A DNA stretch of 34,342 bases from positions 1 to 34,342 of the forward strand of contig JAOUEV010000037.1 of assembly GCA_029858565.1 (NCBI GenBank), read 5' to 3'. Of the stretch, positions 794 through 21,788 are shown one piece after another. The DNA is from Nitrospirota bacterium. Lineage in GTDB: Bacteria; Nitrospirota; UBA9217. Below the pieces are notes generated by a model. It searched no databases. It was given only the letters and a program-made list of their open reading frames with translations, and was not told the origin of the DNA. The position numbers were made by a program, and so were the translations under genes. Position 1 is the first letter of the stretch. Each line of letters opens with the position of its first letter.

Positions 794-1702
794 ATGAAAA
801 CCAAGAGAAAATCGCCATCCGGAAAAGCAACGACGGAACTCGTGCTTTCCGCGTATAACGGCGACAACAGCGAGGTATTCCCCCATGTGCTTCGGCTGCA
901 TGTTCCTGCAGGCGCAAAGGTGGCGGACGTGACCTACGGCAAGGGGGTGTTTTGGAAGAATATACCTGCAGCTGAATACAAGCTGCTGGCGTCTGACTTA
1001 AAATCCGGCGTGGATTGCCGCCATCTTCCCTATGGTGATGGAGAGATTGACTGTGTTGTACTCGATCCTCCTTATATGGAGGGTCTTTTCCGAAGTGATA
1101 ATTCCTTTGCCGGCAATGGGACACATTCCTCGTTCCGCGACCATTACTCGAACGGCGACAGGCCGTCAGCGCTGGCCAACAAGTGGCATGACGCGGTGCT
1201 TGAGTTATACATAAGAGCGGCCATCGAAGCAAAGCGGGTGCTGAAGCGCCACGGCGTGCTTATTGTGAAGTGCCAGGACGAAGTGAGCGCGGGCATCCAG
1301 CGTATGACCCACATCGAGATCATCCTGAACCTCATGCGCATGGGCTTCTATGCAAAGGATATTTTCGTCATGATGCGGCGAAACAAGCCGGGGGTTACCA
1401 GGGTGATCAAACAATTACACGCAAGAAAGAACCACTCGTACTTCCTGGTCTTCCAACTCGGAGCGACAAAGTCCAAACTGAACTCGATCAACATTATGCG
1501 CGATTTAACAGACGTTCAAGAAGGGGAATTGGGCTTGCAATATACGGAGGCTGCAACGGCCACGACACCGGCATTAGTGTTGCGAGAAGCTTCCGCTGAA
1601 TGGAGGGAGGGTAGTTCCGGAAAGTGCTGCGCGGAAGGTCGTCGTTCAGCGCGAAAGCGAAGCGCCACTTCTCTTCGAAAGAAAAAAGGTTTACCGCGAT
1701 GA
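794..1702 (+). CDS. Amino (N6-A/N4-C) DNA methyltransferase of a Type II RM system
   Basis: SAM-binding VADVTYGKG precedes catalytic VVLDPPY; LIVKCQD and [12 protein letters not shown] motifs present; the C-terminal ~70 aa overlap the REase antisense. Confidence 0.85.
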
Positions 1703-2093
1703 TGTCAAACTCGCCAACGAGCAGGCAGGTAGTCTCGACGGTCTTGCCGCCGACTTTGATCTTACGGCGGTCGCTCGCGTCGCATTGATACTTGCCGACG
1801 TATCCATCTTCGGTCTTTTTGATGCTGTTTGTCTGAAGGGATTTGCACTCTATCGTGAAATTTATTCCTTTGTAAGTGACGATGAGATCGCCTTTTCGGC
1901 TTCGGTCATGATCGTCGGCTTTGTGCACATTCTCATAACGCGGTCCGGTAAAGTGCATCTTCCGCAATTTGTATTCGGCTATATAGCCGAGCATGAGACC
2001 TCGCATACTCGGATTCTGCTGGATGATCTCGGTAAGTTCCTTCTCCGTCAGGTCCCACCGTTTAAGTATGCTTTTACGTTCACCTGGTGACAT
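1494..2093 (-). CDS. Putative Type II restriction endonuclease (PD-(D/E)xK fold)
   Basis: GYIAE...[15 protein letters not shown] gives the E...D..ExK core; it converges on the MTase; GGAGA RBS upstream. Confidence 0.7.
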
Positions 2094-2364
2094 GCCGTCT
2101 CCTGTTCCTTCTCTGTATTCCCCGGTTGTTTGGCGCGAAGCATTTTAGCCGCTGGAAATGTTATCGGGGATTCTAACAGATTTTAGCTTTATGTCAAGCA
2201 GGAGCGCTCCATGACATGACTTTGCATGTTTTTTTTGTCCGATAAGCAGCAGCTAGCTGTTTGCGTGCTCAATCTAATAAAGAAGACGCAATTTCCTTCA
2301 ACAATGCTGATATCTCTATTGAGCTTTCGGTGTGATGATGTCACATCGGTTGCCAGAGTTGACG

Positions 2365-3057
2365 ATGTCCCTATATCTTTCCAACTATAAAACAAAAGTC
2401 CGCTCTGCAATCAAGTTGTTTTGGAGCAAGAGGGGAACGGGCAATGCCAAGAAACCGCCCACAAGCGAGATGGATGGTTTCAAGGATCTCGTGGTTGATA
2501 TTGTATGCGCCAACGGGCTGACAAGAGGAAATGTCTTGTCGCCGGATCAATCGGTCACGCTGCCGGGGCATTATTCCGCGACCCAATCATGGGATGTTGT
2601 TGTGGTAAACGAAGGCCGGTTGATCACGGCTATCAAGTTTGATTTTCTGCTCGGCCCATCGCTTGCCACGGGTATGAATGGCATGTGCAATGAAATCCTC
2701 GGCAGGGCTATGGAACTGCGGGGCACATTCAGCAGAAAAGCTTTTGGGGGAATCCGAAAACCTTTCGTGGGCTACTTGTTGCTGCTTGAGGATGCCCCGG
2801 CATCCCGCGCGCCAGTCCGGAATGTTTCTCCTCATTTCCGGCTGTTTCCCGAATTTCGCGAGACTTCCTATGCCGAACGTTACGATCACCTGTGCTGGAA
2901 ACTGATGGCCGAGAATCTCTATTCATCCGCTGCTGTTATCGTTTCGCCGCGATCCGCTTCCAAGTCAGGCTCTTATTCCGAAATGAGCGAACTGACCGGC
3001 CTGAAATCGTTTGTCACGACGTTGGCGGGACATATTGCAGCCGAGGCCGCTATGTGA
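2365..3057 (+). CDS. XhoI/PaeR7I family restriction endonuclease homolog with altered catalytic motif
   Basis: MDGFKDLVVDIVCANGL, TLPG, WDVVVVNEG, PFVGYLLLLEDAP, SPHF..FPEF...SY..RY..LC.KL..E.LY and LAGHIAAEA all match the XhoI family; the expected EFKSQ reads KFDFL. Confidence 0.8.
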   Translation: MSLYLSNYKTKVRSAIKLFWSKRGTGNAKKPPTSEMDGFKDLVVDIVCANGLTRGNVLSPDQSVTLPGHYSATQSWDVVVVNEGRLITAIKFDFLLGPSLATGMNGMCNEILGRAMELRGTFSRKAFGGIRKPFVGYLLLLEDAPASRAPVRNVSPHFRLFPEFRETSYAERYDHLCWKLMAENLYSSAAVIVSPRSASKSGSYSEMSELTGLKSFVTTLAGHIAAEAAM

Positions 3058-3151: not shown

Positions 3152-4462
3152 TTATAACCCTCGCTCATCCAGCAGCTTCTTCTTCCGCTTCTCGAATTCC
3201 CGCTCGCTGATCTCGCCTTTGAGCTTCTGATCCGTCAACGCCCGCAGTTGTATTCTCAAATCATCGGCATCGGACGCTGTGCTTCCCGTGACCGCAGAGA
3301 CAAGTTCGATGCGCTTCTTGAGATTATCGATCTTCCGCAGCAGTGCCGCCTCGCTTTTGATTTCCGAGAGTGCGAGCTTCATCGGCGCGTTTCCGTACCA
3401 GTGAGTGTAATCCGGATTCTGGTGAAAGGCGCCCTTGAATGCGATCAGGGCGTAGAACTGCTTCAGCTTGAAGAAACTACTCTCGACTGACGAGAGGTTT
3501 TCGTACAGCATATGGGGTCCGATGACGAAGGTCGCGCCGAAGAGGGGATGCGGCGGACGGTCGGAAGGCGCAGGAACTAGCAGGCCGTCCCTGTGCAGTC
3601 CCTCGACGATCGCCAGTGCCTCGGCAACGATTTTTTCGCTCTGCTCCGCGACGCCGTCCGCGTCAGCCAGGCTCCGCGCCGCGAACTCCCGGGTATGGCA
3701 TTTGCTGCAGAGGGCGATCATCCGGTCCCGCTCCTGCTTCCGCAGAGCCGAGGTCGCTGACAGGCCCGTGGCGATTCCCCGGCTTACGTTGTGCGAACCG
3801 CCTTCCATGTGGCAGTCGACGCAGGAAGGTCCGGATTTCCCGCCGGACTGCTTGTACAGTACGCCGTGTTGCGACGTTTCCCACGCCTCCAGCTGCGGGT
3901 GGTCCGGGCCCATGTGGCAGACGCCGCAGGTGCCGGGGTTCCGGGCAGTTGCCTGGTCCGTTCCGTGCTTGGTATGGCAGGTATCGCAGGAGGTCTCCAC
4001 GCGATGGCAGGAACCGCATCCCTGGCGCTGCATCTCCGGCGTTTGGGCAAGGAACATCGCGCATTCGGTTTTCACGAGCGGGGCCGCGGACCCGTCCTTG
4101 TGGCAGAAGGCGCAGCTCTTGTCCCGCTCCGCGCCCGGAGGCAGGTTCCGGGTGCACGCCTGGCCGGACTTCAGGCCGACGGCATGCTTGCTCAGGCGGT
4201 GGCTTGCCAAGGCGTCCTTGTGGCAGGAGCCGCAGACCTCGGCAGTTACCGGTCTTTTCCGTCCGTGGCTCGCTTCCACGTTTCCGCCGTGGCAGTCAGC
4301 GCATGCCACGTTCTTCCGGAAATGGACGCTTTCTTTCCAGTAGGCCACGATGCCGGGTGTTTTCCGCTCATGGCAGGAGAGGCAGGGATCGTCGGCCTGG
4401 GCAGGCGCGGCGGCGCAGACCGGGATGAGCAGGGACAACAGGGCGATACGCGTGAGCTTCAT
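3152..4462 (-). CDS. Hydroxylamine-oxidoreductase-like multiheme cytochrome c, 9 CxxCH, with C-terminal SHOCT-like domain
   Basis: Sec signal ending AQA-D. CxxCH motifs: CLSCH, CADCH, CGSCH, CAFCH, CGSCH, CDTCH, CGVCH, CVDCH, CSKCH. HAO-family motifs TPGIV, CHMGPDHPQ, S.HG, GAFHQNPDYTHWYG. Tail LRALTDQKLKGEISEREFEKRKKKLL. Confidence 0.88.
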   Translation of the reverse strand: MKLTRIALLSLLIPVCAAAPAQADDPCLSCHERKTPGIVAYWKESVHFRKNVACADCHGGNVEASHGRKRPVTAEVCGSCHKDALASHRLSKHAVGLKSGQACTRNLPPGAERDKSCAFCHKDGSAAPLVKTECAMFLAQTPEMQRQGCGSCHRVETSCDTCHTKHGTDQATARNPGTCGVCHMGPDHPQLEAWETSQHGVLYKQSGGKSGPSCVDCHMEGGSHNVSRGIATGLSATSALRKQERDRMIALCSKCHTREFAARSLADADGVAEQSEKIVAEALAIVEGLHRDGLLVPAPSDRPPHPLFGATFVIGPHMLYENLSSVESSFFKLKQFYALIAFKGAFHQNPDYTHWYGNAPMKLALSEIKSEAALLRKIDNLKKRIELVSAVTGSTASDADDLRIQLRALTDQKLKGEISEREFEKRKKKLLDERGL

Positions 4463-5694
4463 GGATGTTCCTCCGTTTCCCGCAGCAGACCGGCGCGCCG
4501 GTCATCATACTCCTGCCGGGAGATCAGTTCTTCCGCAAGAAGGTTTTGGAGTCGTGCCAGTTTTGACGCAAGCACGCGGTCCAAAGGACGGTCTGCGCCG
4601 GAAAATGACGGAGTGAAATTCCTGAAGAGCAGAAGCCGGCCGTCCGTTGCCACCGCGAGCCGGGTCCCGTCAGGAGACCAGGAGCCGATGCTGCGCGGGG
4701 AATGCGAAAGCAGGGGCTCCCCTCCCGATCCATCGGTCCTGACGAGCGATCCGCCCAAGTAGATGATGCTTCCCCGGGGATTCCAGGAAGGGTACAGGCC
4801 GGCGGGAGCGGCGACCGGCGTCGCATCGTCATTTCGCAGGGTCTGGAGTTCGAGCCTGCCGTTCCCATCCGCCAGGGCAACGCGCGTTCCGTCAGGAGAC
4901 CAGCCTGCGGAAGCATACAGGGTTTCGCGCCCGCTTCCCGGGATGTCGACTGCGGTCCCGGTCAGCGTGTCAATGCGGGTCACCCGGGAATAGGCAGGCA
5001 CGACCGGCGGTTTCAGATGCTCCATGACGAGGAACGACCCATCGAGCGGATTGACGCCTGCGTGCCGCCAGGCAAGGAGCAATTCTCCGTCCGGGTCTTT
5101 CCAGGGGTAGATCTTGCTGAACGTGGAGAGAGTTTTCGCTCTTCCTGTCGCGACGGCATACCGCGAGATCTGGCGGGAGATCTCGGACCCGATGCGGGTT
5201 GCGCTTATGCGGGCCGATACCAGGATCAGGCTGTCCGCATCTAAGGAATAGAGCATGTCCGCCTGCCGGTCGAGGGGCAGCCGAGTCGCACTGAGCCGGT
5301 CCGGATCGACGGCGAATAATGCTGTCTTGTCAGCCTCCCGGGAGAGCGCATACAGCGTGTTGTTTTCCGACCAGGCCAGGGAAGAAGCGCGCGGGATGTC
5401 CGTTTGTTTCTGTTCAAGCGAGTCCGTGTCCACGATGGTCACGGTCTTGCTGATGAACGCGAGACGTTTGCTGTCAGGCGACCAGGCCAGGGCGCCGGGA
5501 CCAGCGGGCACGCCTTTTGCGATCCTCACCGGATGGTAGAACGACGCTGCTGCGGTCAGGGGATCATGCCGGAGGGGGACACAGGCAGGAACGAACAATA
5601 AGAGCGATAGGGCGAGGAACATTCCCGGCGACGGCACAATAATCGTAAAACAGCGGGATCGGCAAATACGCGGGGTGCTGTTCGGAAATTTCAT
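4459..5694 (-). CDS. TolB/WD40-like beta-propeller lipoprotein with C-terminal SHOCT-like domain
   Basis: Repeats LAWSPDSKRLAF, LAWSENN, GWSPDGTRVAL, SWNPRG, SWSPDGTRLAV; hydrophobic stretch with VPA-C lipobox; tail KLARLQNLLAEELISRQEYDDRRAGLL. ATG 5694 overlaps the nadB stop (ATGA). Confidence 0.75.
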   Translation of the reverse strand: MKFPNSTPRICRSRCFTIIVPSPGMFLALSLLLFVPACVPLRHDPLTAAASFYHPVRIAKGVPAGPGALAWSPDSKRLAFISKTVTIVDTDSLEQKQTDIPRASSLAWSENNTLYALSREADKTALFAVDPDRLSATRLPLDRQADMLYSLDADSLILVSARISATRIGSEISRQISRYAVATGRAKTLSTFSKIYPWKDPDGELLLAWRHAGVNPLDGSFLVMEHLKPPVVPAYSRVTRIDTLTGTAVDIPGSGRETLYASAGWSPDGTRVALADGNGRLELQTLRNDDATPVAAPAGLYPSWNPRGSIIYLGGSLVRTDGSGGEPLLSHSPRSIGSWSPDGTRLAVATDGRLLLFRNFTPSFSGADRPLDRVLASKLARLQNLLAEELISRQEYDDRRAGLLRETEEHP

Positions 5695-7280
5695 CTTCTT
5701 GATCTCGTATGTTCCAATACGATCCTCTTCCGCCAGTTCTTCCCCTTCGCGGGAAAATCCGTCCGATAGTGGCCGCCCACGCTGCCTTCGCGCAGCAGCG
5801 CCGCGCGCGTGATCAGGTGAGCCACCTCGATCATGTTCTTGAGTTCCAGGGCCTGTCGCTCGAGCGGCGGGTTTTTGATCATGCGGTACCATTCCCGCAG
5901 TTTCTTTGTTGCCGCCTGGAGTCCTTTCCGGGTGCGCAGGATTCCTGCGTTTTCCCACATGATCTTCCGAAGCGACGTCCTGACAAAATCAATGTCCGAG
6001 GCTGTATTAACGCCGGAATGACGTTTTTCGAGGTCCTTCAGGAACCTGCCGGAGGGGGCTTCCGGCCGTTCTCGGCGCGCGGCGTAGCGGGCGGCCCCCA
6101 GACCGGCCCGTTCGCCGAAGACCAGACCTTCGAGGAGCGAGTTGCTCGCAAGGCGGTTAGCGCCGTGCACGCCGGTGCACGCGGTCTCACCTGCCGCGAA
6201 AAGGCCCGGAACGGTAGTCGCGCCCCAGAGGTCGGTCTTGACGCCGCCCATGATGTAGTGGGCAGCGGGCGAGACCGGGATCTGCTGCCGGGAGATGTCG
6301 ATGCCAAGCTCTTTGCAGGTCCGGTAGATGCGGGGGAAACGCCACATCAAATATTTGTCGAACATATGGGTCATGTCAAGGTAGACGTGGTCCGCGCCGG
6401 TCCGGATCATCTCGGAATGGATTGCCCGGGTGACCACGTCGCGCGGGGCCAGCTCGCGCGCGGGATGGTAGCGGTCCATGAACCGGAGACCGTCGGTGTT
6501 CCGGAGCATGCCGCCTTCGCCGCGCATGGCCTCGGACAGCAGGAATTGGGGCGCGCCCGGCAGGAACAGCGCAGTTGGATGGAACTGGATGAATTCCATG
6601 TCCACGAGCGCTGCGCCGGCGCGCCAAGCCATGGCCATGCCGTCCGCGGTGGATACCGGCGGATTCGTCGTTCTTTCGAAGAGCCGTCCTGCGCCGCCGG
6701 CAGCCAGCAGCACGGCCCGGGCCGAGATCACGAGCACCTTGCCTAAACGTTGCTGGACAACGACCGCGCCGGTGCATCGGCCCTTTTCAATGATCAGGTC
6801 CGCGGTAAAGGCAAAGTCGATCTTCGATGCGCGCTGCGTTGTACGCACCTTGTCGATCAGCACCCGCAGGATCTCATGGCCCGTGGAGTCTCCTTGGGCG
6901 TGCAGGATGCGGCGCTTGGTGTGGGCGGCTTCCTGGGTAAAGGCGAGTTTGCTTCCTTCCTTGTCGAACTCCGCTCCCCATGCGATCAGCTCCCGGATGC
7001 GCGTCGGGCCCTCTTCAACGAGGGTGCCCACGGATTTCCGGGTACAGAGACCGTCGCCCGCCTTGATCGTATCGTCGAAATGGATCGAGATCTCATCCTC
7101 GTCGGAAAGGGCGACCGCAATGCCGCCCTGGGCGTACTCAGTGCTGCTTTCCGACGGCGCGTCCTTGGTCACTACGAGCACGTCGCCGTTGCGAGCAAGT
7201 TCGATCGCGGCACGGAGGCCTGCCACGCCGCCGCCGATGATCAGGAAGTCTGTTGCTAGATGTTCGATGGTGTAGGACAT
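5691..7280 (-). CDS. nadB: L-aspartate oxidase
   Basis: GGGVAGL FAD motif, STEYAQGGIA, EAAHTKRRILHA, EFIQFHPT, LLSEAMRGEG, ELAPRDVV, AHYIMGG, GVHGANRLASNSLLE. Confidence 0.95.
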   Translation of the reverse strand: MSYTIEHLATDFLIIGGGVAGLRAAIELARNGDVLVVTKDAPSESSTEYAQGGIAVALSDEDEISIHFDDTIKAGDGLCTRKSVGTLVEEGPTRIRELIAWGAEFDKEGSKLAFTQEAAHTKRRILHAQGDSTGHEILRVLIDKVRTTQRASKIDFAFTADLIIEKGRCTGAVVVQQRLGKVLVISARAVLLAAGGAGRLFERTTNPPVSTADGMAMAWRAGAALVDMEFIQFHPTALFLPGAPQFLLSEAMRGEGGMLRNTDGLRFMDRYHPARELAPRDVVTRAIHSEMIRTGADHVYLDMTHMFDKYLMWRFPRIYRTCKELGIDISRQQIPVSPAAHYIMGGVKTDLWGATTVPGLFAAGETACTGVHGANRLASNSLLEGLVFGERAGLGAARYAARRERPEAPSGRFLKDLEKRHSGVNTASDIDFVRTSLRKIMWENAGILRTRKGLQAATKKLREWYRMIKNPPLERQALELKNMIEVAHLITRAALLREGSVGGHYRTDFPAKGKNWRKRIVLEHTRSRR

Positions 7281-8012: not shown

Positions 8013-10805
<2,793 letters not shown>

Positions 10806-10971
10806 GAAATCCAAGTGTTACAGTAATAAGCAGTAGAGTAATAAAGCAAGTTGAACTAGGGTCAACAACCTTTTCTGAACTAGCTTGCCTACAATAGAGG
10901 CTGGATAGAAATTATACTCCCCGGAGAGGAGGGGAGTAAAGGCTTTTGTACTTTTGGGGCGCTGCTTCTCA

Positions 10972-11035: not shown

Positions 11036-14000
11036 ATGACCATCCGTAACAAACTGATGTTGTCGTTCTTTAGCGTTGCCCTGCTGATCGGGATGCTGGG
11101 GGCCTACGCCGTTTACCGGTCCATTGACCAGACCGAGCATGCAGCGCTGCACGAATCCACGGCCGTTGCGCAGACCATTGCCGCGCTCGTGAGCGAATAC
11201 CTGGATGACGGCGGCAAGCCGGTTCCTGGAGATCGGGTTGAAGTGCAGGATCATATCGAGAGGCTCAAGGAGCTTCACCAGCGCGACATTGTGATCGTAG
11301 ACCTGCAGAAGAAAATCATTGCGGACGCCGTGCCCGGAGAGATCGGGACGGTCTTTAATCATGATGCGGGGGACGAGGTCGGAAAGACGATCGCCGATGG
11401 AAAACTCCGGACCTTTCGGGAGATCAGCGCGGCCTATCCCGCGGGCATCAGGCAGATCGTTCTGCCGCTGGACAATGACAGGGGAAAGCGCGCCGGGGCG
11501 GTGATCCTGGAATACACACCGCTGTATGACGAAATCCTGCAGATGAACAAGCGTTCCGCGGGGTCATACCTGCTCTTGTATGTTTTCGCCCTCGGCCTCT
11601 CCCTGTTCATCGGATACCGCATTTCCCGGGAAATTTCCCGGCCTCTTGCAGAACTGCAAAATGCCGCGCTCAAGGTCGCTGCCGGGGACCTGTCGGTGAC
11701 CGTGGAACCGCGGTCGCAGGATGAGCTGGGCTCCCTTGCAGACAGCTTCAATAAGATGACCAACGGTCTGAGTTGGGCGCGGGACCGGCAGATGCGGGCA
11801 CATGAGGAGCTTCTGGCCGAGAGCACGCTGCGGAAGAAGACCGATGAGGCGCTGCTGCAGAGCGAGGTAAAGTTCCGGACCCTGTTCGAGGATGCGGCTG
11901 ATGCGATCTTCGTCATGGATCTGGAAGGGAATTTCATCGATGTGAACCGGACAGCCTACACGCGCCTGGGGTATGCCAAGGAGGAGATGCTGTCCCTCCA
12001 CATTTCGCAGCTGAACGATCCGCAGTTCAATCCGGCGCTGCGCGAACGGTTCAGCAGGATCAAGAGCGAAGGTCAGGCGGTGTTCGAGTCCGGACACCGG
12101 AGAAAAGACGGGTCCTTCATGCCCGTGGAAGTGAACGCCCGCATCGTGGATTTCGGCGGCAGGACGGTGTTCTTCAGCGTGATCCGGGACATCACGGACC
12201 GCAAGCGGGCTGATGACGTGATCAGGAAGGCGAACACCCGGCTCCGGTCCCTGATCCAGGCCATTCCCGACATGGTCATATTCAAGGACCGTGATGGCCG
12301 GCATTTGCTGGTGAACAGGACCGTCGAGGAAATGACCGGCCATGCCGCCGAGGAGATCATCGGCAGGACCGCGGAAGAGATCATGCCGCCTGCTGCCGCG
12401 GAAGCCTGCAGAAAGAGCGATGAAGCGGCGCTGGAGGGCCCTGTGCCTATCCATAGGGATGAACGCATGATCTTGCAGGACGGTTCGGTCAGGTACATCG
12501 ACATGGTCAAAGCGGCCATGGTGGATGACCGGGACCAGGTCATCGGACTGGTGGCGATCGGCCGCGACGTCACGGACCGTAAACGCGCCGAGGCGATCCT
12601 GCGCGAGAGCGAGGAAAAGTACCGCGAACTGGTGGAGAGCGTGAACAGCATCGTACTCCGCTGGTCGGCCGACGGCGTTATCGAGTTCATCAACTCCTTC
12701 GGGGCCCGGTTCTTCGGCTACGCGTCCGGAGAGCTCGCGGGACAACCGGTGCTCGGTACGATCGTTCCCGAGAGCGAGTCAACAGGACGGGACCTGGCAT
12801 CCATGACCCGGGACATCTGTCAATATCCCGACCGGTACCTTAATAATGTGAATGAGAACATGCGCAGGAACGGACGGCGCGTCTGGGTCTCCTGGACGAA
12901 CAAACCGGTGGTGGACGATGAAGGCCGGCTGGTAGAGATCCTGAGCATCGGCAATGATATCACCGAGCGGATGCATGTGCAGGATGAACTGCGCAGGCAT
13001 CGTGAGGAGTTGATGCGGCTGGTGGACGAGCGGACGCGCGAGCTGCAGGAGACGAACAACCATCTGCGCAGGGAAATCGCTGATCGCGAGCGGATGGAGC
13101 AGGAACTGGTCAAGGCCCAGAAGCTCGAATCCCTCGGTGTGCTAGCCGGCGGCATTGCCCATGATTTCAACAACCTGCTGACCACGGTCATGGGAAACAT
13201 CTCCATGGCGCTCCTGGATGTCGACGCCCGCCATCCGGCATACAAGGAGCTTGCTCGGGCCGAGCGCGCCATCCTGCGCGCCCAGGACCTGACCCAGCAG
13301 TTACTCACCTTTTCCAAGGGCGGCGCGCCGGTCAGAAAGACGGCGTCGATTAGCGATCTTATCAGGGAGACAGCGGGTTTTGCCGTGCGGGGCGGAAGGG
13401 TAAAGTGCGAATCCCGTTTGCCCGATGATCTGCGGCTCGTGGACATGGACGGGGGGCAGATGAGCCAGGTCATCCACAACCTGATCATCAATGCCGATCA
13501 TGCCATGCCCGACGGCGGAACCATTACCGTGCGCGGAGAGAACGTCCGCCTTCCTGTGAGCGGCGGGCCCTCCCTGCCTCCGGGAGATTATGTCCGGGTC
13601 TCGGTAGAGGACCACGGCATGGGCATCCCTGCCGAGTATTTGCCGAAGATATTTGATCCCTATTTCACCACAAAACAGCGGGGGAGCGGCCTTGGCCTGG
13701 CAACCAGCTACTCGATCATCCAGAAGCACGGCGGCAGCATTACCGTCCGATCCGTGCTGGGCAGGGGCACGACCTTTGAGCTCTACCTTCCTGCCAGCAG
13801 CGCATCAGCCCTGGCAGCGGGCGCGGATACTGCCACTCTGCAGGCCGCCGCGGGCCGGGTGCTGGTCATGGACGACGAGGAGGATGTACGGGAAACTGCC
13901 GGCAGTGTTCTCAAGCGGCTCGGCTATTCCGTTGCGCTGGCCGAGGATGGCAATCAGACGATAACGATGTACCGCGAGGCCATGGAACGAGGAGAACCCT

Positions 14001-14257
14001 TTGACGCGGTGATCATTGACCTGACGGTCCCGGGCGGAATGGGCGGCAGGGAGGCGGTCAGGCTCCTGCGAGAGATCGATCCCTCGGTCAGGGCGATCGT
14101 GTCAAGCGGCTATTCGAACGATCCGGTGATGGCGGAGTATGAGGACTACGGTTTTGCCGGCATGGTCTCCAAGCCCTACCGGATGAAAGACCTCGGCTTG
14201 GCAGTGCAACGGGTCCTTGCGAACGACCGGCCGGAAGGGGTAAGGAGCGAACCCTGA
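11036..14257 (+). CDS. Hybrid sensor histidine kinase (2 TM, periplasmic sensor, HAMP, 3 PAS, HisKA, HATPase, REC)
   Basis: HAMP (DELGSLADSFNKM); three PAS/PAC ends (DITDRK, DVTDRK, DITERM); H-box GIAHDFNNLL; G boxes DHGMGI and FTTK..GSGLGL; receiver VLVMDDE..DLTVPG..KPY. Confidence 0.93.
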   Translation: MTIRNKLMLSFFSVALLIGMLGAYAVYRSIDQTEHAALHESTAVAQTIAALVSEYLDDGGKPVPGDRVEVQDHIERLKELHQRDIVIVDLQKKIIADAVPGEIGTVFNHDAGDEVGKTIADGKLRTFREISAAYPAGIRQIVLPLDNDRGKRAGAVILEYTPLYDEILQMNKRSAGSYLLLYVFALGLSLFIGYRISREISRPLAELQNAALKVAAGDLSVTVEPRSQDELGSLADSFNKMTNGLSWARDRQMRAHEELLAESTLRKKTDEALLQSEVKFRTLFEDAADAIFVMDLEGNFIDVNRTAYTRLGYAKEEMLSLHISQLNDPQFNPALRERFSRIKSEGQAVFESGHRRKDGSFMPVEVNARIVDFGGRTVFFSVIRDITDRKRADDVIRKANTRLRSLIQAIPDMVIFKDRDGRHLLVNRTVEEMTGHAAEEIIGRTAEEIMPPAAAEACRKSDEAALEGPVPIHRDERMILQDGSVRYIDMVKAAMVDDRDQVIGLVAIGRDVTDRKRAEAILRESEEKYRELVESVNSIVLRWSADGVIEFINSFGARFFGYASGELAGQPVLGTIVPESESTGRDLASMTRDICQYPDRYLNNVNENMRRNGRRVWVSWTNKPVVDDEGRLVEILSIGNDITERMHVQDELRRHREELMRLVDERTRELQETNNHLRREIADRERMEQELVKAQKLESLGVLAGGIAHDFNNLLTTVMGNISMALLDVDARHPAYKELARAERAILRAQDLTQQLLTFSKGGAPVRKTASISDLIRETAGFAVRGGRVKCESRLPDDLRLVDMDGGQMSQVIHNLIINADHAMPDGGTITVRGENVRLPVSGGPSLPPGDYVRVSVEDHGMGIPAEYLPKIFDPYFTTKQRGSGLGLATSYSIIQKHGGSITVRSVLGRGTTFELYLPASSASALAAGADTATLQAAAGRVLVMDDEEDVRETAGSVLKRLGYSVALAEDGNQTITMYREAMERGEPFDAVIIDLTVPGGMGGREAVRLLREIDPSVRAIVSSGYSNDPVMAEYEDYGFAGMVSKPYRMKDLGLAVQRVLANDRPEGVRSEP

Positions 14258-14521: not shown

Positions 14522-14809
14522 GGTACCTCCGGTGGATGTCTATGGCGTTCACTACGCGCCATCCGTCTCACAAGTCAATAGTACCACAGTGAGCGTTCAA
14601 AACGAATACCCGCGTGCGGGGGAACCCTTCGTTGCCCGAAAGCCGTGCTGTCCTGAGTGCTGTTTCTGCGCCAATGTAATGATGGACATCAGTGCTGCAA
14701 TGTGCAATAATTTCCAGCTGAATGATCAGCCGGTCGTAATTCCGAAAAGTAAGCTCTTGCGGTCTGGTCGCCCGCGGATCGCGACACGGCTGCTGTGGAA
14801 GGAGCAGGC

Positions 14810-16813
14810 ATGGGGAAGAGGGTCCTTGTTATCGTATGCCTGTCAATGGTCCTCCTGGGCGCATCGGCAGGAAATTCACTGTCTGAGCCCCCTCCGGTCA
14901 TGACCGCTTCCCTGGGCGACGAGACACTGCTGTTCCAGGAGATCCCCACGGTCACGGGCGCATCAAAGTATGAACAGAAGGTGATCGAGGCGCCGTCTGC
15001 CGTGACCATCGTGACCGCAGCGGACATCAGCAGGCACGGCTACCGTACCCTGGCGGACCTTCTCCGGAGCGTGCGGGGCTTCTACGTGACCTATGACCGC
15101 AACTACAGTTATGTGGGCGTGCGCGGTTTCGGACGGCCCTCTGACTACAACACCCGCGTCCTGCTTCTTTTTGACGGCCACCGGGCGAACGATAATGTCT
15201 ATGACGGGGCCTATTTCGGCACCGAGTCGATCATCGATATCGACCTCATCGACCGCGTCGAGATCATACGGGGACCGGGCTCGTCGCTGTACGGCAGCAA
15301 CGCCCTGTTCGCCGTTGTGAACGTCATCGCCAAGCGGGGCAGGGACCTGAAGAGCGCCGAACTGGCGGCAGAGGCAGGCAGCCAGGGGACGGCCAAAGGC
15401 AGGGCAAGCTACGGCGACCGGTTCTCGAACGGTGTCGAAGCGCTTATCTCCGCCTCGGCCTATGACAGCACCGGGCAGCGGCTGTACTATCCGGAATACG
15501 ACTCGCCGGCGACCAATAATGGCGTTACTGAACGGACCGATTATGACAGAACCGAGAACTATTATCTCAAGCTTTCCCACCACGACCTGACCTTCTCGGG
15601 CGCCTATCTCGCCCGGACCAAGGGCATCCCGACCGGCGCCTTCGGCACGGATTTCAACGAACAACAGAACAAGACCCGCGATGAGCGCGCTTACGCGGAC
15701 CTGAAATTCGAGCGGAGCCTGAGCAGCATCACGGACATCACGGCACGCCTTTATTACGACCGCTACCGGTACGAGGGGGACTACGCGTACTTCCAGGATC
15801 CCTTCACGTCAGCACTGAACAAGGACCTGGGCTCCGGAGACTGGTGGGGGAGCGAACTCCGCCTCATCCGGAAAGCCGGGGACCTGCACCGCCTGATCTT
15901 CGGCGCCGAGTACCAGGGCAACCTGCGCCAGGACCAGGAAAGCTTTTATGCCGATCCCTATGGGTCGATCATGCCCAAGGATGAGCGGCGGTCCAGCGTG
16001 GCCGCGGCCTATGTGCAGGACGAGATCACGTTCTCGTCGTCCTTACTGCTGAACGCCGGTGTGCGGTATGACCGGTACTCGACCTTCGGCGGTACGACGA
16101 ATCCGCGGCTCGCCCTGATCTGCAATACCGTGGGCAAGGGCACGGTCAAGGCCCTCTACGGCAGCGCCTTCCGCACGCCGAACGCTTTCGAGCTGTACTG
16201 GCAGTCGACGACAACGGACGCGAATCCGGACCTGAAGCCCGAGCAGGTCCGGACCTATGAACTGATCTACGAGCAATATCTGGGGGACCGTCTCCACGGG
16301 AGCCTTTCGGGCTACTATTACCGCATCAATGACCTGATCACCCAGGTCACGGTCGCATCGGGCAACACCATGTTCGAGAACATCGACAGTGTTGCCGCGC
16401 GGGGCGGGGAAGTGGAACTTGACGCCAAGTGGCGCGGCGGGATCGAGGGCCGCCTCAGTTTTGCGCTCCAGCGGGCCGAGGACCAGCGGACCGGACAGCC
16501 GCTCACGAACTCTCCGGCGCAGATGGCGAAGCTTGCGGTCACCGCGCCCCTTGTTGCTGACCGCGTCTTTGCGGGCATTGACGAGCAGTACCTCGGCAGG
16601 CGCAGGACCGAGGCCGGGAACTTCACTCCCGGTTTCGGGATCACGAACATCACGGTTTACGGCCAGACGCTGAGGAAACGGTTCGAGGTCTCGGCAAGTG
16701 TCTACAATCTCTTTGACCGCAGGTTCGGGGACCCGGTGTCCCGGGACTTTCTTCAGGACACGATCCTGCAGGACGGCAGGAGCTTCCGCGTGAAGCTCGG
16801 CTGCGCATTCTGA
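14810..16813 (+). CDS. TonB-dependent receptor (signalling-cassette type)
   Basis: Signal peptide; plug domain (ASKYEQKVIEAPSAVTIVT, IDRVEIIRGPGSSLYGSNA); barrel with VYNLFD; terminal Phe. Confidence 0.92.
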   Translation: MGKRVLVIVCLSMVLLGASAGNSLSEPPPVMTASLGDETLLFQEIPTVTGASKYEQKVIEAPSAVTIVTAADISRHGYRTLADLLRSVRGFYVTYDRNYSYVGVRGFGRPSDYNTRVLLLFDGHRANDNVYDGAYFGTESIIDIDLIDRVEIIRGPGSSLYGSNALFAVVNVIAKRGRDLKSAELAAEAGSQGTAKGRASYGDRFSNGVEALISASAYDSTGQRLYYPEYDSPATNNGVTERTDYDRTENYYLKLSHHDLTFSGAYLARTKGIPTGAFGTDFNEQQNKTRDERAYADLKFERSLSSITDITARLYYDRYRYEGDYAYFQDPFTSALNKDLGSGDWWGSELRLIRKAGDLHRLIFGAEYQGNLRQDQESFYADPYGSIMPKDERRSSVAAAYVQDEITFSSSLLLNAGVRYDRYSTFGGTTNPRLALICNTVGKGTVKALYGSAFRTPNAFELYWQSTTTDANPDLKPEQVRTYELIYEQYLGDRLHGSLSGYYYRINDLITQVTVASGNTMFENIDSVAARGGEVELDAKWRGGIEGRLSFALQRAEDQRTGQPLTNSPAQMAKLAVTAPLVADRVFAGIDEQYLGRRRTEAGNFTPGFGITNITVYGQTLRKRFEVSASVYNLFDRRFGDPVSRDFLQDTILQDGRSFRVKLGCAF

Positions 16814-17757
16814 TGAGGACCCTATTGATGATCAAGAAGCCGCTCATCGCGATCTTGCTGTTCCTGCTGTGGTTCCTTCCCGGCGGGAGGATCACTGCCG
16901 CTGACGACCGGATCGTCATCCTGGTCAGCTCCAATGAGGACCCCTTCGCGCAGACGGTAGAGGGATTCTCGACCGCCCTGTCCAGGAGCCGCAACGGCTC
17001 CGGCGTGGAGATCATCCGCCTGGACGGCGACGCCGCAAAGGCCGGTCCCTCGGCACGGAAGATCAGGGCCGGGGGCGCGCGGCTCGTCTTCACCGTGGGG
17101 GCGCTCGCAACAGACGCCGCAGCGCGGGAACTGTCCGACATCCCCGTGGTCTCGTGCCTGGTCCTGCGCACCGATGCGCTGCAGCAGTCCCCGAACATGA
17201 CCGGCGTGGGACTCGAGTATCCCGCCGAGGTTCAGTTCGCATGGATGCAGCGCCTGCTGCCCCGGGCAAAGAACATCGGGATCCTCTACAACGCAGGCGA
17301 GAACCAGCGGACCGTTGATGCGGCAAAAGAGGCGGCGAAGCAGGCAGGCATCAGGCTGGAGACGGAACAGGTGCGGTCGCCCCAGGACGTGCCCGCGGCG
17401 CTGAACAACCTTTCACGGCGCGTTGACGCCATCTGGGGGATCCCGGACAGCATCGTGCTCTCTCCGCTCATCGCCAAGAACATCCTGCTCTTCTCGTTCC
17501 GGAACAGCATTCCCGTCATTGGTCCGTCTTCCACCTGGGTCAAGGCCGGCGCGCTCTATGCCCTGGACTGGGACTATCGCGACCTGGGCGGCCAGTGCGG
17601 CGAAATGGCGATCCGTATCCTCGAAGGCGCGACGCCGAAGTCCATTCCCACGGCCGGTCCGCGCAAGGTGAACTATTCGATCAATCTGGTCACGGCACGG
17701 CAGATGAAGCTCGAACTGCCCGGCCAGCTGGTCCAGGGCGCGCGTCAGACGTATTAA
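16813..17757 (+). CDS. ABC-type substrate-binding protein (ABC_sub_bind-like), periplasmic sensor partner
   Basis: NMTGV, IGILYN, DAIWGIPDS, GALYAL..DY..LG.Q.GEMA.RIL.G, INL.TA; its start overlaps the receptor stop. Confidence 0.85.
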   Translation: MRTLLMIKKPLIAILLFLLWFLPGGRITAADDRIVILVSSNEDPFAQTVEGFSTALSRSRNGSGVEIIRLDGDAAKAGPSARKIRAGGARLVFTVGALATDAAARELSDIPVVSCLVLRTDALQQSPNMTGVGLEYPAEVQFAWMQRLLPRAKNIGILYNAGENQRTVDAAKEAAKQAGIRLETEQVRSPQDVPAALNNLSRRVDAIWGIPDSIVLSPLIAKNILLFSFRNSIPVIGPSSTWVKAGALYALDWDYRDLGGQCGEMAIRILEGATPKSIPTAGPRKVNYSINLVTARQMKLELPGQLVQGARQTY

Positions 17758-17766
17758 GGAACGACG

Positions 17767-18748
17767 ATGGGAATCCGGAACGATCAACGAAGAGGCGGTC
17801 TCCGTAGCGGGCCATGATGTCTTTGTCACGTGCAGCATGGGGATCGCCCTGAGTTCGAGCGGGTACGAGTTCCCGGAACAGGTGCTGCGCGACGCGGACA
17901 CGGCAATGTACAAGGCAAAATCCCGCAGCCGGTCGGACGTCGCGATCTTCGAGCCGACCATGCACGCCCATGCTTTGGAGCGGCTCCTGCTCGAGACCGA
18001 CCTGCGGCTGGCCCTGGACCGCAGGGAATTCGCGACCTATTACCAGCCGATCCTGTCGGTCAGCAGGAAATGCATCGTCGGGTTCGAAGCGTTGGCGCGC
18101 TGGAACCAGGCTGAGCGCGGGCTCATTCAGCCGGCCCACTTCATCCCGCTTGCCGAGGAAACGGGCCTTATCGTCTCGATCGAACGGATGATCCTGAGGC
18201 AGGCGTGCATGCAGATGAAGACAGGGAATGACCTGTTCCCGGACGACAACCGCAGGTTCGTGATCGTGAACCTGGCGCACAAACAGATCCTGCAGCCCGA
18301 CCTGGTGGAGTATGTCGCCGCGGCGCTGAAGGAGTCCGGCCTGCGTCCGGACCAGCTGAAACTGGAGATCACCGAGAACGTGCTGTTCGAGAATCCCGCG
18401 TCCGCCGCAGCGCTGCTTTCAAAACTGCGCGACCTGGGCGTGCAGCTCTACATCGATGACTTCGGGACCGGCTACTCGTCGCTCAGCTACCTGCACCGCC
18501 TGCCGATCAACGGCCTCAAGATCGACCGTTCCTTCATCAAGCGGATAGACGACATTGATGAGAACAAGGCGATCGTCAGGACCATCCTGACACTTGCACG
18601 GGACATGCACATGGATGTGGTCGCCGAGGGCGTGGAAACAGCGAACCAGCTCGCGCACATCGCGGCGCTGGACTGCACCTGCTGGCAGGGCTTCTTTTAT
18701 TCCAAGCCCGTGGACAGCGGTGCGGCGCAGTCGATGCTGGAAGGCTAG
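17767..18748 (+). pseudogene. Internally deleted GGDEF-EAL protein; intact EAL domain may be expressed from ATG 17837
   Basis: Only the GGDEF tail remains (GHDVFVTCSMGIA...LRDADTAMY). The EAL is complete (FEALARW, LEITE, DDFGTGYSSL, KIDRSF, AEGVET, QG). An RBS-preceded ATG at 17767 (MGIRN) is in another frame. Confidence 0.7.
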
Positions 18749-18993: not shown

Positions 18994-19209
18994 CTGCCGA
19001 AGCCCCACCCTTTCAGGTGGCGTCGTCATCTTCTCTCTTGCCATTTCCCCGCAATTGTACTAATCTCATGTTCATGAGCGAACAAAAGGACCCAACCCGT
19101 ATTCCCTGCCCGCCTTAGGTATTTGCCACTGCTAAACCGGGATGCCGTCATTGAGGCTTTACGCGGGAATTCTCTTTGGGTAATATGAAGTCAACGATAG
19201 GTGTTTTTT

Positions 19210-20505
19210 ATGGCAAAGAATAAGAAATATGAAAAAATGAAAAAAGACATTCCCCTTGTTGCAGAGGAAGAAGCCGTGTACCTTGCACGGGTTGATGGCT
19301 CGCTGCAGGATGTAAAGCTGCGACCTAAACTTATCGACTTGTTCGCAGGTGCAGGGGGGATGACGCTTGGCTTCACAAAGTTTACCGGACACGGATATAT
19401 ACCTGTGTGGGCGAATGATTTTAATGATTATGCCGCACGTACCTATAATGCAAATTTCGGGGAGCATTGTAGGGTCGGTGATATCGTCGATATCCTCGAA
19501 AATCCGAAAACCAAAATCCCTAAAGCTGATGTTGTGATCGGAGGCCCTCCCTGTCAGGGATTTAGTTTGCTCAACAGAAATCGCGATAACGATCCAAGGA
19601 AGCAGCTTTGGCGGCCGTATATGGACATCGTAGAGCGCTCCGGAGCGTCCGTTTTCGTCATGGAGAACGTACCTCAGCTGCTCGATTCCTTTGAGCATGG
19701 TGAAATTATCGGTGTAGCTGAGGCAATGGGATTTAAATTGAGATGGGCGAAACTATGCGCAGCCGATTACGGTGTTCCTCAAGTAAGGTGGCGTGCTTTT
19801 ATCGTAGGATGTAAATTTGCCGATCCTGCCGGCGTTTTTCCTCCTAGAAAAACAAACTTCAACGTCAATAACGGCCACCGTAGGGCTTTTAACGAAGAAT
19901 TCGATGAATACATTACGAATCCATCGCCATGGAAAACGGTTCGTGATGCTATTGGTGATTTACCGCCGCCAATTGGGACAGACATACGCAATGAGAACCC
20001 GCCGTTAGATTTGCATTTCGGGCGGACACCGACGGGAATGAGTATGAAACGCTACCGGTCAATACCGAAAGAAGGTATGAACCGATTCGATCTTCAAAAA
20101 CGAGCACCGGAATTGACTCCGGCTTGCTGGATTCGTAAAACATCTGGAGGAACCGATTTGTTCGGAAGGTTATGGTGGGGTAGACCTTCGGTAACGATAC
20201 GAACGGAATTTTTCAAGCCGGAGAAGGGGCGCTATCTGCACCCTGAGCAGCATCGCCCGATTACACACAGAGAGGCGGCGAGATTACAGTCTTTCCCGGA
20301 CGATTTTCAGTTTGTCGGGACAAAGACGGAAATAGCAAAGCAGATTGGAAATGCGGTACCGCCGGTTTTAGCAGCTCGTATTGCAGATTGCGTTTACACG
20401 TTGTTGCTGTCGAAGGAAGTCAATAAATGCCGGATGTCTTCAGCAGGAAGAAAAGAAGCTGGATTATGGCGCGAATTTCAGGCTGCAACACAAAACCTGA
20501 AATGA
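19210..20505 (+). CDS. dcm: DNA (cytosine-5)-methyltransferase
   Basis: Motifs DLFAGAGG, GGPPCQGFS, MENV, QVRWR, REAARLQSFPD, QIGNAV. Confidence 0.95.
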   Translation: MAKNKKYEKMKKDIPLVAEEEAVYLARVDGSLQDVKLRPKLIDLFAGAGGMTLGFTKFTGHGYIPVWANDFNDYAARTYNANFGEHCRVGDIVDILENPKTKIPKADVVIGGPPCQGFSLLNRNRDNDPRKQLWRPYMDIVERSGASVFVMENVPQLLDSFEHGEIIGVAEAMGFKLRWAKLCAADYGVPQVRWRAFIVGCKFADPAGVFPPRKTNFNVNNGHRRAFNEEFDEYITNPSPWKTVRDAIGDLPPPIGTDIRNENPPLDLHFGRTPTGMSMKRYRSIPKEGMNRFDLQKRAPELTPACWIRKTSGGTDLFGRLWWGRPSVTIRTEFFKPEKGRYLHPEQHRPITHREAARLQSFPDDFQFVGTKTEIAKQIGNAVPPVLAARIADCVYTLLLSKEVNKCRMSSAGRKEAGLWREFQAATQNLK

Positions 20506-20846
20506 TCGTCCGTAAAATACTTTACAAAATGGGGTACCGTTATCGGCTGCACGACAAGAAACTGCCGGGAACGCCTGACATCGTGCTAACGAGGCATCAA
20601 AAAGTTGTTTTTGTGCATGGATGTTTCTGGCACGGACATAAGGTATGTCGAAAGGGTGTCCTGCCGAGTAGTAATAAAGCCTTCTGGGCGGAGAAGATAG
20701 CGAAGAACCAGGAACGAGATCGTCGCGCAGTGAGATTGCTAAGAAAAACAGGATGGCGGCTGTTGGTTGTTTGGGAATGCACTACCGGCGATATTGAAAA
20801 GCTTGGGGCCAGATTAAATCGGTTTCTGAAAACAAAGCGGAGCTGA
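20427..20846 (+). CDS. vsr: Very short patch repair endonuclease
   Basis: DVFS..KRS.IM.RI...NTKPE, LPGTPDIV, FVHGCFWHGH, FW..KI..N..RD, VVWEC. Confidence 0.95.
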   Translation: MPDVFSRKKRSWIMARISGCNTKPEMIVRKILYKMGYRYRLHDKKLPGTPDIVLTRHQKVVFVHGCFWHGHKVCRKGVLPSSNKAFWAEKIAKNQERDRRAVRLLRKTGWRLLVVWECTTGDIEKLGARLNRFLKTKRS

Positions 20847-20849
20847 GAA

Positions 20850-21788
20850 TTGCCAAGACGACCGAGTGAAACAAAGCCGGAAACGATACGTGTACAACTT
20901 ATCGAGCTTCTTGCACACTTTGAGGATCAGCTCAGGAAGGGTGATCTTCGGAGAAAAGTACTGTCACTGATTTCCGCTTTTCATCTTCTGCGTGATCTTG
21001 GAAGTTCTTTGATTCCCCGCGAAGAGGCTTCTGCAGCCCGAGATAGAATCCTCGCCTATTTCCGTAAATATCCCTTGTTGGTAATTCATGGAGATGAGTT
21101 GATGGTGGTCTCGGGTATTCAGGATTGGCCAAGGAGGATAAGAGAACTGAGGCGGGAGTATGGTTGGGCAATTGCATCAGGTGTCACGGTCCAAGAGATG
21201 ATCGCGGAGGATGAAATCAACGTAAAAGGGCTGGTTGAAGCATCGTTAAAGCCTGAGGAATATATATTGCTCGATAAAGAACAAGATCGCGAAGCGGCGC
21301 ATCGATGGAAAATTGCCAACGATATTCGCAAAAAGTCAGGCGGTGTGCATGCAAAGATTCTTGAGTTTTTACGCAGCAACGTCGGGAGACCTGTAACGGG
21401 AGAGGAACTTCGGTATGTAACAAATGACAAGAGCGAGTGGGCACGTCGTGTGCGTGAATTGAGAACAGAACAAGGCTGGCCGATTCTCACGCGTAACACT
21501 GGCCGGCCGGACTTGCCCATAGGTTCCTACTTACTTGAGAAAGATAGACAAAGTCCTGCACATGATAGAAAGATTCCCGATCCTGTTCGGCGAGCAGTGC
21601 TCGTTAAAGACAAATATACATGTCAGAAATGCCGCTGGACTCACGAGCAGTGGAACCCTTCTGATCCACGGCATCTTGAACTCCACCACAAAGAACACCA
21701 CGCGAAGGGTGGCGAGAACACGAAAGAGAACTTGATCACATTGTGCGTGGTTTGTCATGACGCAGTTCATCGTAAGGACAAATCATAA
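20850..21788 (+). CDS. HNH endonuclease with tandem wHTH-like repeats, probable restriction enzyme of the dcm-vsr cassette
   Basis: Two repeats GDEL..WPRRIRELRREYGW and GEEL..WARRVRELRTEQGW; C-terminal CQKC...HH..HH..GG.N..ENL.TLC..CHD..H; TTG start. Confidence 0.85.
   Translation: MPRRPSETKPETIRVQLIELLAHFEDQLRKGDLRRKVLSLISAFHLLRDLGSSLIPREEASAARDRILAYFRKYPLLVIHGDELMVVSGIQDWPRRIRELRREYGWAIASGVTVQEMIAEDEINVKGLVEASLKPEEYILLDKEQDREAAHRWKIANDIRKKSGGVHAKILEFLRSNVGRPVTGEELRYVTNDKSEWARRVRELRTEQGWPILTRNTGRPDLPIGSYLLEKDRQSPAHDRKIPDPVRRAVLVKDKYTCQKCRWTHEQWNPSDPRHLELHHKEHHAKGGENTKENLITLCVVCHDAVHRKDKS

Follow-up and report, generated by a model that had tools for sequence, protein, structure and literature searches.

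A conserved, translationally coupled gene pair encoding an HAO-family cytochrome with nine haem motifs and a beta-propeller lipoprotein, both with SHOCT-like tails, in Nitrospirota and other bacteria

Enzymes of the hydroxylamine oxidoreductase (HAO) family carry out hydroxylamine oxidation, hydrazine oxidation and nitrite-to-NO reduction in the nitrogen cycle; to our knowledge, their roles outside nitrifiers, anammox bacteria and Epsilonproteobacteria are largely unknown. The Nitrosomonas HAO operon also encodes HaoB, cytochrome c554 and cM552. In Kuenenia stuttgartiensis, according to the available account, the HAO-family enzyme Kustc0458 (6H5L) reduces nitrite to NO without a Tyr cross-link and is purified as a complex that contains its partner, Kustc0457, in equimolar amount (PMC8042395). 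Here we describe a gene pair from a Nitrospirota bacterium (GTDB lineage UBA9217; assembly GCA_029858565.1), found on contig JAOUEV010000037.1, whose 34,342 nucleotides are referred to as the window. One gene encodes a beta-propeller lipoprotein and the other, directly behind it, an HAO-family cytochrome c with nine CxxCH motifs, and both proteins end in a SHOCT-like pair of helices. The two genes are a conserved, translationally coupled pair, and a functional partnership of their products is very likely. Our reading of the pair, which we hold with about even confidence, is a two-subunit, lipoprotein-tethered HAO-type module that would be joined via the SHOCT hairpins and would probably perform reductive chemistry.

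Like the Kuenenia system, the pair couples an HAO-family enzyme to a separately encoded partner, which in Kuenenia is stoichiometric. Unlike the window cytochrome, however, Kustc0458 has eight haems and no SHOCT tail, and its partner is a dihaem cytochrome that extends the haem ring (PMC8042395); it also falls in a different clade, and its Brocadia relatives in our set (L072, L079, L092 and L096) end without a SHOCT tail. With Nitrosomonas europaea HAO (1FGJ/4FAS), the window cytochrome shares the fold, the order of haem motifs 1-8, the Asp-His after haem 6 and a C-terminal helical region, at about 24% identity over the structural alignment. It differs in being shorter at the N-terminus, in adding a ninth-haem insertion and a SHOCT tail, in having His at the position of Tyr467, and in the absence of an adjacent c554/cM552 gene. 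Anammox hydrazine synthase offers an analogy only: it is a nitrogen-cycle haem enzyme with integral, cofactor-less beta-propeller modules, as the accessible part of its description has it (PMC12758564), but its haem subunits are cytochrome c peroxidase-like and unrelated to HAO, and it carries neither SHOCT tails nor a lipid anchor. The tails themselves resemble the SHOCT domain (PF09851) in being short, two-helix and C-terminal and in following the same sequence pattern, as given in the relevant passages of the founding paper (PMC3581485), although the window copies score below the gathering cut-off. The words "cytochrome", "periplasm" and "lipoprotein" do not occur in that paper, and our literature searches found no account of SHOCT on a cytochrome and no paper that treats SHOCT together with hydroxylamine oxidoreductase. 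As far as these searches went, the cytochrome/propeller pair is undescribed, as the initial annotation had supposed, supplementary gene tables of genome papers, which may list the genes, aside.

The junction of the two genes, an ATGA that holds the propeller stop and the cytochrome start, was noticed in the initial annotation and is confirmed on the coding strand (Table 1). A scan led by the cytochrome, with one genome per species, yielded 33 loci of its clade, 31 of them with upstream DNA and two without room on the contig, from Nitrospirota, Desulfuromonadales/Geobacteraceae, Desulfobulbaceae, Anaeromyxobacteraceae and other Myxococcota; the hosts include the cultured Geomonas oryzae S43, Geomonas azotofigens Red51 and Geobacter sp. 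OR-1. The gene directly upstream of the cytochrome matches the propeller profile in 30/31 loci, and in the remaining one (L041) the upstream frame was missed by the profile and has a lipobox and a SHOCT-like tail. When starts are assigned from start-codon position only, 27 of the 31 loci allow a 4-nt overlap and three a 1-nt overlap, and one has a gap. Adjacency was also found in the opposite direction. A propeller-led profile search of 301 genomes of the Nitrospirota phylum found the propeller in 12, the window's included (10/229 high-quality genomes), with no match in the three further genomes of the window's genus. A nine-haem-motif, SHOCT-tailed cytochrome lies directly downstream of it in 9 of the 11 other phylum genomes. 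One exception, in genome G110 (locus L162, G110:C2:368500-372000), is a decayed copy of the module: an in-frame TAA cuts the propeller short right ahead of a SHOCT-like stretch that can still be recognised, and the region downstream has many stops and no cytochrome gene; the other, in G134, is a weak propeller paralog with neither tail nor cytochrome. Some sequences (a number of identical tails among them) occur both in the set of genome handles and in that of named records, so that counts from the two are not additive. The supposition that the two genes co-occur was therefore upheld both ways, with the partner upstream in 31/31 loci and the cytochrome downstream in 9/11 genomes.

No third conserved gene was seen in the flanks of 10 loci (48 proteins), which consist of unrelated housekeeping genes, and the same flanks contain no gene for NapC/NrfH, a quinol dehydrogenase, cytochrome b, or a c554-like or small cytochrome. 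Because these flanks vary from locus to locus, the unit consists of two genes only, patchily distributed. A propeller-led metagenome scan with a narrow alignment (A5) returned 56 loci that were swamped by generic "WSPDG" PD40 matches and is uninformative for co-occurrence; its top locus, L105, is a contig-end fragment (propeller profile E 3e-31), and the other 55 range from E 1e-9 to 6e-5. In a search of sequencing runs, no RNA run carrying the stretch was listed, and a single DNA run, which may come from the source sample, covers it in full.

Table 1. Features of the gene pair and of other genes in the window (positions in the window; residue numbers refer to the protein named)
Feature	Position	Strand	Details
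Propeller lipoprotein gene	4459..5694	minus	ATG at 5694, stop at 4459; 411 aa; PD40/WD40-type beta-propeller
HAO-family cytochrome c gene	3152..4462	minus	ATG at 4462, stop at 3152; 436 aa; nine CxxCH
ATGA overlap, propeller stop / cytochrome start	4459..4462	minus	Plus strand reads TCAT
GGAGG ribosome-binding site	4470..4474	minus	7 nt 5' of cytochrome ATG, within the end of the propeller gene
Sec-type signal peptide of cytochrome	4394..4462	minus	Residues 1-23; AQA end precedes first haem motif; read from translation
CxxCH motifs of cytochrome			Residues 27, 54, 77, 117, 149, 159, 179, 214, 252; nine in total
Clade-only insertion of cytochrome	4061..4165	minus	About residues 100-134; ninth CxxCH C117-H121; extra invariant C103 and C134
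Haem-6 motif and Asp187-His188 (CxxCHMGPDH)	3899..3928	minus	Matches distal Asp-His of HAO active site
SHOCT-like hairpin, cytochrome C-terminus	3170..3250	minus	Residues 405-431; helices H396-414, H420-433
Signal peptide and lipobox of propeller	5581..5694	minus	Residues 1-38; predicted lipidated Cys38, by pattern
Propeller domain	4624..5529	minus	Residues 56-357; about seven blades; invariant Pro229-Pro230
SHOCT-like hairpin, propeller C-terminus	4483..4563	minus	Residues 378-404; helices H373-387, H393-409; pLDDT 96-97
Second ATGA overlap, nadB stop / propeller start	5691..5694	minus	Context only
uvrA	8013-10814
Hybrid histidine kinase	11036-14257		HAMP, PAS and receiver domains
TonB-dependent receptor	14795-16813
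ABC substrate-binding protein	16813-17757
EAL-domain protein	17837-18748

Sequence, fold, haem motifs and active-site motif all place the cytochrome in the HAO family, and it is the equivalog of no characterised member. It matches the Pfam family Multi-haem_cyto (PF13447, E 2.4e-25), and in a phmmer search against the PDB the seven top places are taken by HAO-family proteins (E 1.5e-36 to 3.8e-26). They are led by the reductive Kustc0458 (6h5l, E 1.5e-36) and include the Kuenenia hydroxylamine oxidase 4n4j (E 5.7e-35), the Brocadia hydroxylamine oxidase 6t5e, hydrazine dehydrogenase (6hif) and the Nitrosomonas enzyme (4fas, 6m0p, 1fgj). An AlphaFold2 model built with 25 homologs is of moderate quality (pLDDT 70.5), and a Foldseek search with it placed HAO or hydrazine dehydrogenase (HDH) structures in all of the first ten places (TMq 0.50-0.54). 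The hydrazine dehydrogenase equivalog NF052343 is matched at 99.7 bits, far under its cut-off of 900. All eight HAO haem motifs are present in HAO order, aligned with those of other HAO-family rows, and nine CxxCH motifs were counted in 117/120 of the best homologs, the exceptions being two short entries and one with a variant motif. The HAO fold proposed in the initial annotation stood as family membership, but the protein is not a plain HAO: its clade is a distinct one, marked by a ninth haem motif. The export of both proteins, likewise proposed there, agrees with signals seen by eye and by pattern: the N-terminus is hydrophobic in 25/25 aligned cytochrome homologs, and the column of the propeller lipobox Cys38 is Cys in 42 of 43 aligned propellers, and a lipobox pattern is present in 38 of the 43. 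At the other end of the cytochrome, the model predicts a 43-residue helix (H350-392), then a linker of variable length (about residues 393-404) and then the hairpin.

The ninth CxxCH is part of an insertion, about 45 residues long, that follows haem motif 3 and precedes motif 4. When the cytochrome and one Geomonas member of its clade were compared with nine rows from other HAO-family groups, the insertion was an alignment gap in 9/9 of these rows, among which the eight-haem paralog of the window's genome (see below) was not included. Within the clade the insertion is invariant in 25/25 aligned homologs, and its pattern recurs in 144/152 family sequences. The model is poor at this place (pLDDT < 50 over residues 90-150). 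A ninth c-type haem is, on these motif data, predicted to have been gained in the insertion.

In trees of 79 HAO-family rows (quick searches with SH-aLRT support, unrooted, with several long branches elsewhere), the 33 nine-haem-motif, SHOCT-tailed cytochromes form one group with an SH-aLRT of 99, and the clade was kept at SH-aLRT 100 when insertion and tail were removed before alignment. It splits into two subclades, one mainly of Nitrospirota with two Myxococcota-type rows and the other of Desulfuromonadales/Geobacteraceae and allies. Pairwise identities of cytochrome and propeller are correlated across 29 loci (Spearman 0.87, 406 pairs) as well as within the subclades (0.75 and 0.86), at median identities of 50% for the cytochrome and 24% for the propeller. 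Such correlated divergence means inheritance as a unit and says nothing on binding. The window's genome has a second HAO gene (G000 contig C14:38621-39907, L004:8621-9907, minus strand), which encodes 428 residues with eight CxxCH, has neither a SHOCT tail nor a propeller neighbour, and groups with sequences from Leptospirillia and Deltaproteobacteria (L059 and L060), outside the present clade.

Other HAO-family groups have devices of their own at the C-terminus. Many members of a group found in Gemmatimonadota, Rokubacteria/Methylomirabilota, Binatia and others (L062-L083, L086, L098 and L099) also have nine CxxCH. Like the pair, this group carries a C-terminal device for membrane attachment, which here is a hydrophobic helix with an Arg-rich stretch in the same polypeptide; unlike in the pair, the extra CxxCH sits in an N-terminal monohaem domain, no propeller neighbour was found by profile search, and the clade is separate. 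These features suggest that the group comprises membrane-anchored HAO-type enzymes. A Thermodesulfobacteriota metagenome-assembled genome (L061) encodes an HAO-like protein that has ten CxxCH and, in a long extension at the C-terminus, repeats of the conserved "NPDYAHWYGNAP" helix motif before a terminal transmembrane helix. The predicted ninth haem, the SHOCT tail and the obligate propeller partner set the present clade apart from the Nitrosomonas system, from the anammox paralogs and from the clades with membrane helices.

The active-site motif of the cytochrome is strongly conserved. D187 and H188 are invariant in 25/25 aligned homologs, CxxCHMGxDH is present in 150/152 family sequences, and the same motif aligns in 4n4j, 6h5l and 4fas; the Asp-His pair after haem 6 presumably has a catalytic role, as we take it to have in the HAO active site. 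Around the cross-linking tyrosine the picture is less simple. The Nitrosomonas Tyr467 aligns with an invariant His354 of the cytochrome, in a local alignment that is ambiguous by about 2 residues. His354 is flanked by two tyrosines, Tyr352, which is kept in 127/130 family sequences (Phe or Trp in 3/130), and Tyr356, which is kept in 100/130 (Phe or Leu in 30/130), and His354, Trp355, Gly357 and Asn358 are invariant around both. At the position of Tyr356, the oxidative Kuenenia 4n4j has Tyr as well, and 6h5l, which lacks the cross-link, has Trp. Because the best solved relative, Kustc0458, is reductive, the candidate cross-link tyrosines are not invariant and the hosts are anaerobes, the chemistry is probably reductive, with nitrite, NO or hydroxylamine as the compound reduced, and would serve respiration or detoxification. 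We know of no route to hydroxylamine in anaerobic Nitrospirota and Geobacteraceae.

No specific structural relative of the propeller was found. Its PD40 match scores 31 bits (cut-off 20.9), the TolB equivalog TIGR02800 is matched at 16.5 bits against a cut-off of 343, and an NCBIfam scan gave no match beyond weak TolB hits. The AlphaFold2 model (43 homologs) is good (pLDDT 91.2, pTM 0.87) and has about 28 strands over residues 56-357, followed by two helices. Foldseek put generic seven-bladed G-beta propellers on top (TMq about 0.5), and ESM Atlas neighbours are TolB/PD40 clusters only. Near-universal residues are all structural (Pro-Pro, Trp, Gly). The initial annotation had proposed that the propeller takes the place of the usual cytochrome c554/cM552 or NapGH partners; dedicated genes for these are indeed absent next to the pair, both in the window and in the 10 loci with scanned flanks, but an electron-carrying role for the propeller is contradicted by its sequence, as CxxCH occurs in none of the 43 aligned propellers, whose only conserved Cys is that of the lipobox. 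Since it has no redox motif, its role would be structural: it can tether or scaffold and cannot carry electrons.

When the last 42-43 residues of each protein were scanned alone against Pfam SHOCT (PF09851, gathering score 27), both tails covered model positions 2-28 of 28 and both stayed under the gathering score, the cytochrome tail at 23.7 bits (E 4e-5) and the propeller tail at 20.9 bits (E 2.8e-4). Across the clade, 25/33 cytochrome tails match SHOCT at E <= 0.01 (best E 3.6e-9), as do 9/30 propeller tails (best E 1.5e-7); precomputed PF09851 annotations exist for 11/120 cytochrome homologs and 2/28 close propeller homologs. Aligned to each other with hhalign, the profiles of the two tails match over 39 columns with a probability of 94.8% and E 5e-8. 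These profile comparisons justify the label "SHOCT-like" and show homology between the two tails. The claim that both proteins end in SHOCT-like domains thus stood in that the whole model is covered and the tails are mutually homologous, and fell short in that both score below the Pfam cut-off. The tails are also well kept, being present in 119/120 of the best cytochrome homologs, judged by eye, and in about 141 of the 147 representatives of normal length among the best 150 propellers at 50% clustering (126 by a strict pattern and 15 by eye). Both window tails are strongly hydrophilic, with a top helical hydrophobic moment of 0.56 at a mean hydrophobicity of -0.84. As an observation apart, the C-terminal part of GvpG (PF05120, positions about 28-64 of 67) is matched by 31/33 cytochrome tails (window 3152-3298), more often than SHOCT is, and this suggests that the end of GvpG may itself be a SHOCT-type hairpin.

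Taken together as a mechanism, the cytochrome would be the catalytic subunit and the propeller a cofactor-less, roughly seven-bladed partner anchored by its lipobox cysteine. The SHOCT hairpins would hold the subunits together, in the simplest case with one propeller per cytochrome and hence three per presumed HAO-type trimer, so that a soluble cytochrome would be tethered to the membrane and the pair would do the same job as the C-terminal transmembrane helix of other HAO-family groups. Electrons would come from a donor encoded elsewhere, for which the ninth haem is a candidate entry port. That the two subunits are made in fixed proportion and act together is suggested by the overlapping stop and start codons, the two-way adjacency, the type of terminal domain that both share, and the lack of an intact tail in propellers without a cytochrome. 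The layout of the cytochrome C-terminus, in which a long helix (350-392) leads through a variable linker into the hairpin, suits a tether, and the hydrophobic C-terminal helix of other HAO-family proteins provides a precedent for membrane attachment at that end. In its most specific form, the mechanism is heterotypic SHOCT docking, with a trimeric nine-haem reductase and lipoprotein propellers in a membrane-tethered 3:3 assembly that uses the ninth haem as an entry port; we put this forward tentatively, as a possibility that we rather doubt. Binding of the two proteins, its mediation by the tails, the trimer stoichiometry, the direction of catalysis and the substrate are what we infer.

Several observations weigh against the tethered two-subunit module. 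The evidence for physical contact of the two proteins is genomic. The tails of paired proteins show no charge complementarity (means +2.4 and +1.5; Spearman -0.25, p 0.19, 30 pairs), and the moderate model of the cytochrome gives neither the position of the ninth haem nor a trimer. Oligomerisation through SHOCT, which the initial annotation took as established, was proposed in the founding paper, whose own test of one domain, as far as the available text goes, gave it no support: no self-association was found, and the authors suggest that the domain binds something other than itself (PMC3581485). A comparative study, in the portion available, predicts membrane anchoring by SHOCT-like domains, the proteins concerned being cytoplasmic (PMC11237479), so that two tails could be explained without tail-to-tail contact. 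A few Nitrospirota propellers do not show the lipobox Cys. As for the chemistry, the well-kept Tyr352 (127/130) is two residues from the position aligned with Tyr467, in a stretch of ambiguous local alignment. Nor is the module the sole candidate nitrite enzyme of its genome, which encodes an NrfA homolog and another HAO paralog, with eight haems, as well. Finally, neither the window nor the flanks of 10 loci showed an electron-donor gene near the pair; NapC/NrfH-like cytochromes are, like the NrfA homolog, encoded elsewhere in the window's genome.

Some of these points also fit other explanations. Each hairpin could bind one and the same third surface (the membrane face, peptidoglycan or another protein, for example), with the cytochrome and the propeller co-localised or touching via other surfaces. 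The predicted localisation of unrelated proteins to the membrane by SHOCT-like domains (in the accessible text of PMC11237479), the lack of self-association of the SHOCT domain (in that of PMC3581485) and the missing charge complementarity of paired tails would all suit such an arrangement. However, the proteins covered by that prediction are cytoplasmic (PMC11237479), whereas the pair is exported, the hydrophilic window tails are unlike a membrane-inserting amphipathic helix, and the propeller is already lipid-anchored in most lineages, which makes a second anchor seem redundant. Both propellers without a cytochrome neighbour, moreover, are also without an intact tail, and we consider the third surface unlikely. 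Alternatively, the propeller may be no stable subunit and may act as a transient helper in maturation, folding, haem-site assembly or substrate delivery, a role in keeping with its far faster divergence (24% against 50% median identity), with the absence of a cofactor motif and with near-universal residues that are structural only. Such a helper seems quite improbable to us, given that overlapping stop and start codons in 30/31 loci suggest a fixed proportion, that the same type of terminal domain is kept in both proteins across at least three phyla, and that a lipid anchor has no obvious use in a helper.

Two further explanations concern what the cytochrome does. It would be an oxidative, P460-type HAO if hydroxylamine or hydrazine were oxidised at a haem cross-linked to Tyr352 or Tyr356, and the frequency of both residues (127/130 and 100/130), the alignment of Tyr356 with a Tyr of the oxidative 4n4j and the conserved Asp-His are what such an enzyme might show. 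Neither tyrosine is invariant, though, as their neighbours are, the residue aligned with Tyr467 is His, the hosts are anaerobic and the best solved match is the reductive Kustc0458; oxidation therefore strikes us as a poor prospect. The Asp-His motif in 150/152 family sequences argues for catalysis at an open haem, and hence against the remaining explanation, in which the lipoprotein holds a nine-haem wire for extracellular or outer-membrane electron transfer, for example to metals, with no nitrogen chemistry. In E. coli, lipoproteins with a residue other than Asp at +2 are sorted to the outer membrane, and residue +2 of the lipobox Cys is never Asp among the 43 aligned propellers; the module is common in Geobacteraceae and Desulfuromonadales, and the extra haem would lengthen the chain. 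But these phyla may not follow the sorting rule, and there is no porin or other conduit gene near the pair in the 10 loci scanned, so that we regard an electron wire as highly unlikely. We retain the lipoprotein-tethered, probably reductive module as our reading of the pair.

The surroundings of the pair in the window are listed in Table 1 where they are not given here, and none of the context genes between 8013 and 18748 recurs beside the pair in other loci. The gene upstream of the propeller is nadB (5691-7280; TIGR00551 match 565.9 bits). It was considered as a member of the conserved unit and rejected, as it adjoins the pair in the window and in none of the other loci examined. In two genomes of the same genus, nadB (77-78% identity) is followed by a downstream region without anything resembling the pair. 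A restriction-modification pair adjoins the cytochrome gene (window 794-3057), with an N6/N4 DNA methylase at 794-1702 (PF01555) and its partner, an XhoI-type endonuclease, at 2332-3057 (PF04555, E 1.8e-51). Downstream of nadB in those two genomes the pair is missing, so that this stretch may be an acquired island. A likely second restriction-modification pair lies at 19201-21788, where a C-5 cytosine methyltransferase (19201-20505, PF00145, E 2.4e-58) is followed by an HNH endonuclease-domain protein (20850-21788).

The clade is frequent in anaerobes of sediment and groundwater, and its cultured, genetically approachable Geobacteraceae hosts make the function of the pair directly testable. 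As two exported proteins with overlapping genes and one SHOCT-like copy each, the pair also forms a natural system of unusual clarity in which the function of SHOCT domains can be tested; if heterotypic docking were true, it would be the first function assigned to SHOCT, whose role has been open since 2013. For N2O production by nitrate-ammonifying Geobacteraceae, NO is described as an intermediate between nitrite and N2O (PMC11633192); in the accessible text of that paper "hao" occurs once, in a figure legend, and no HAO-family enzyme is discussed. An overlooked periplasmic enzyme acting on nitrite, NO or hydroxylamine could bear on this NO/N2O pathway of Geobacteraceae, and the module, if docked in this heterotypic way, would represent a new architecture of periplasmic nitrogen-oxide enzymes in Nitrospirota, Geobacteraceae and Myxococcota.

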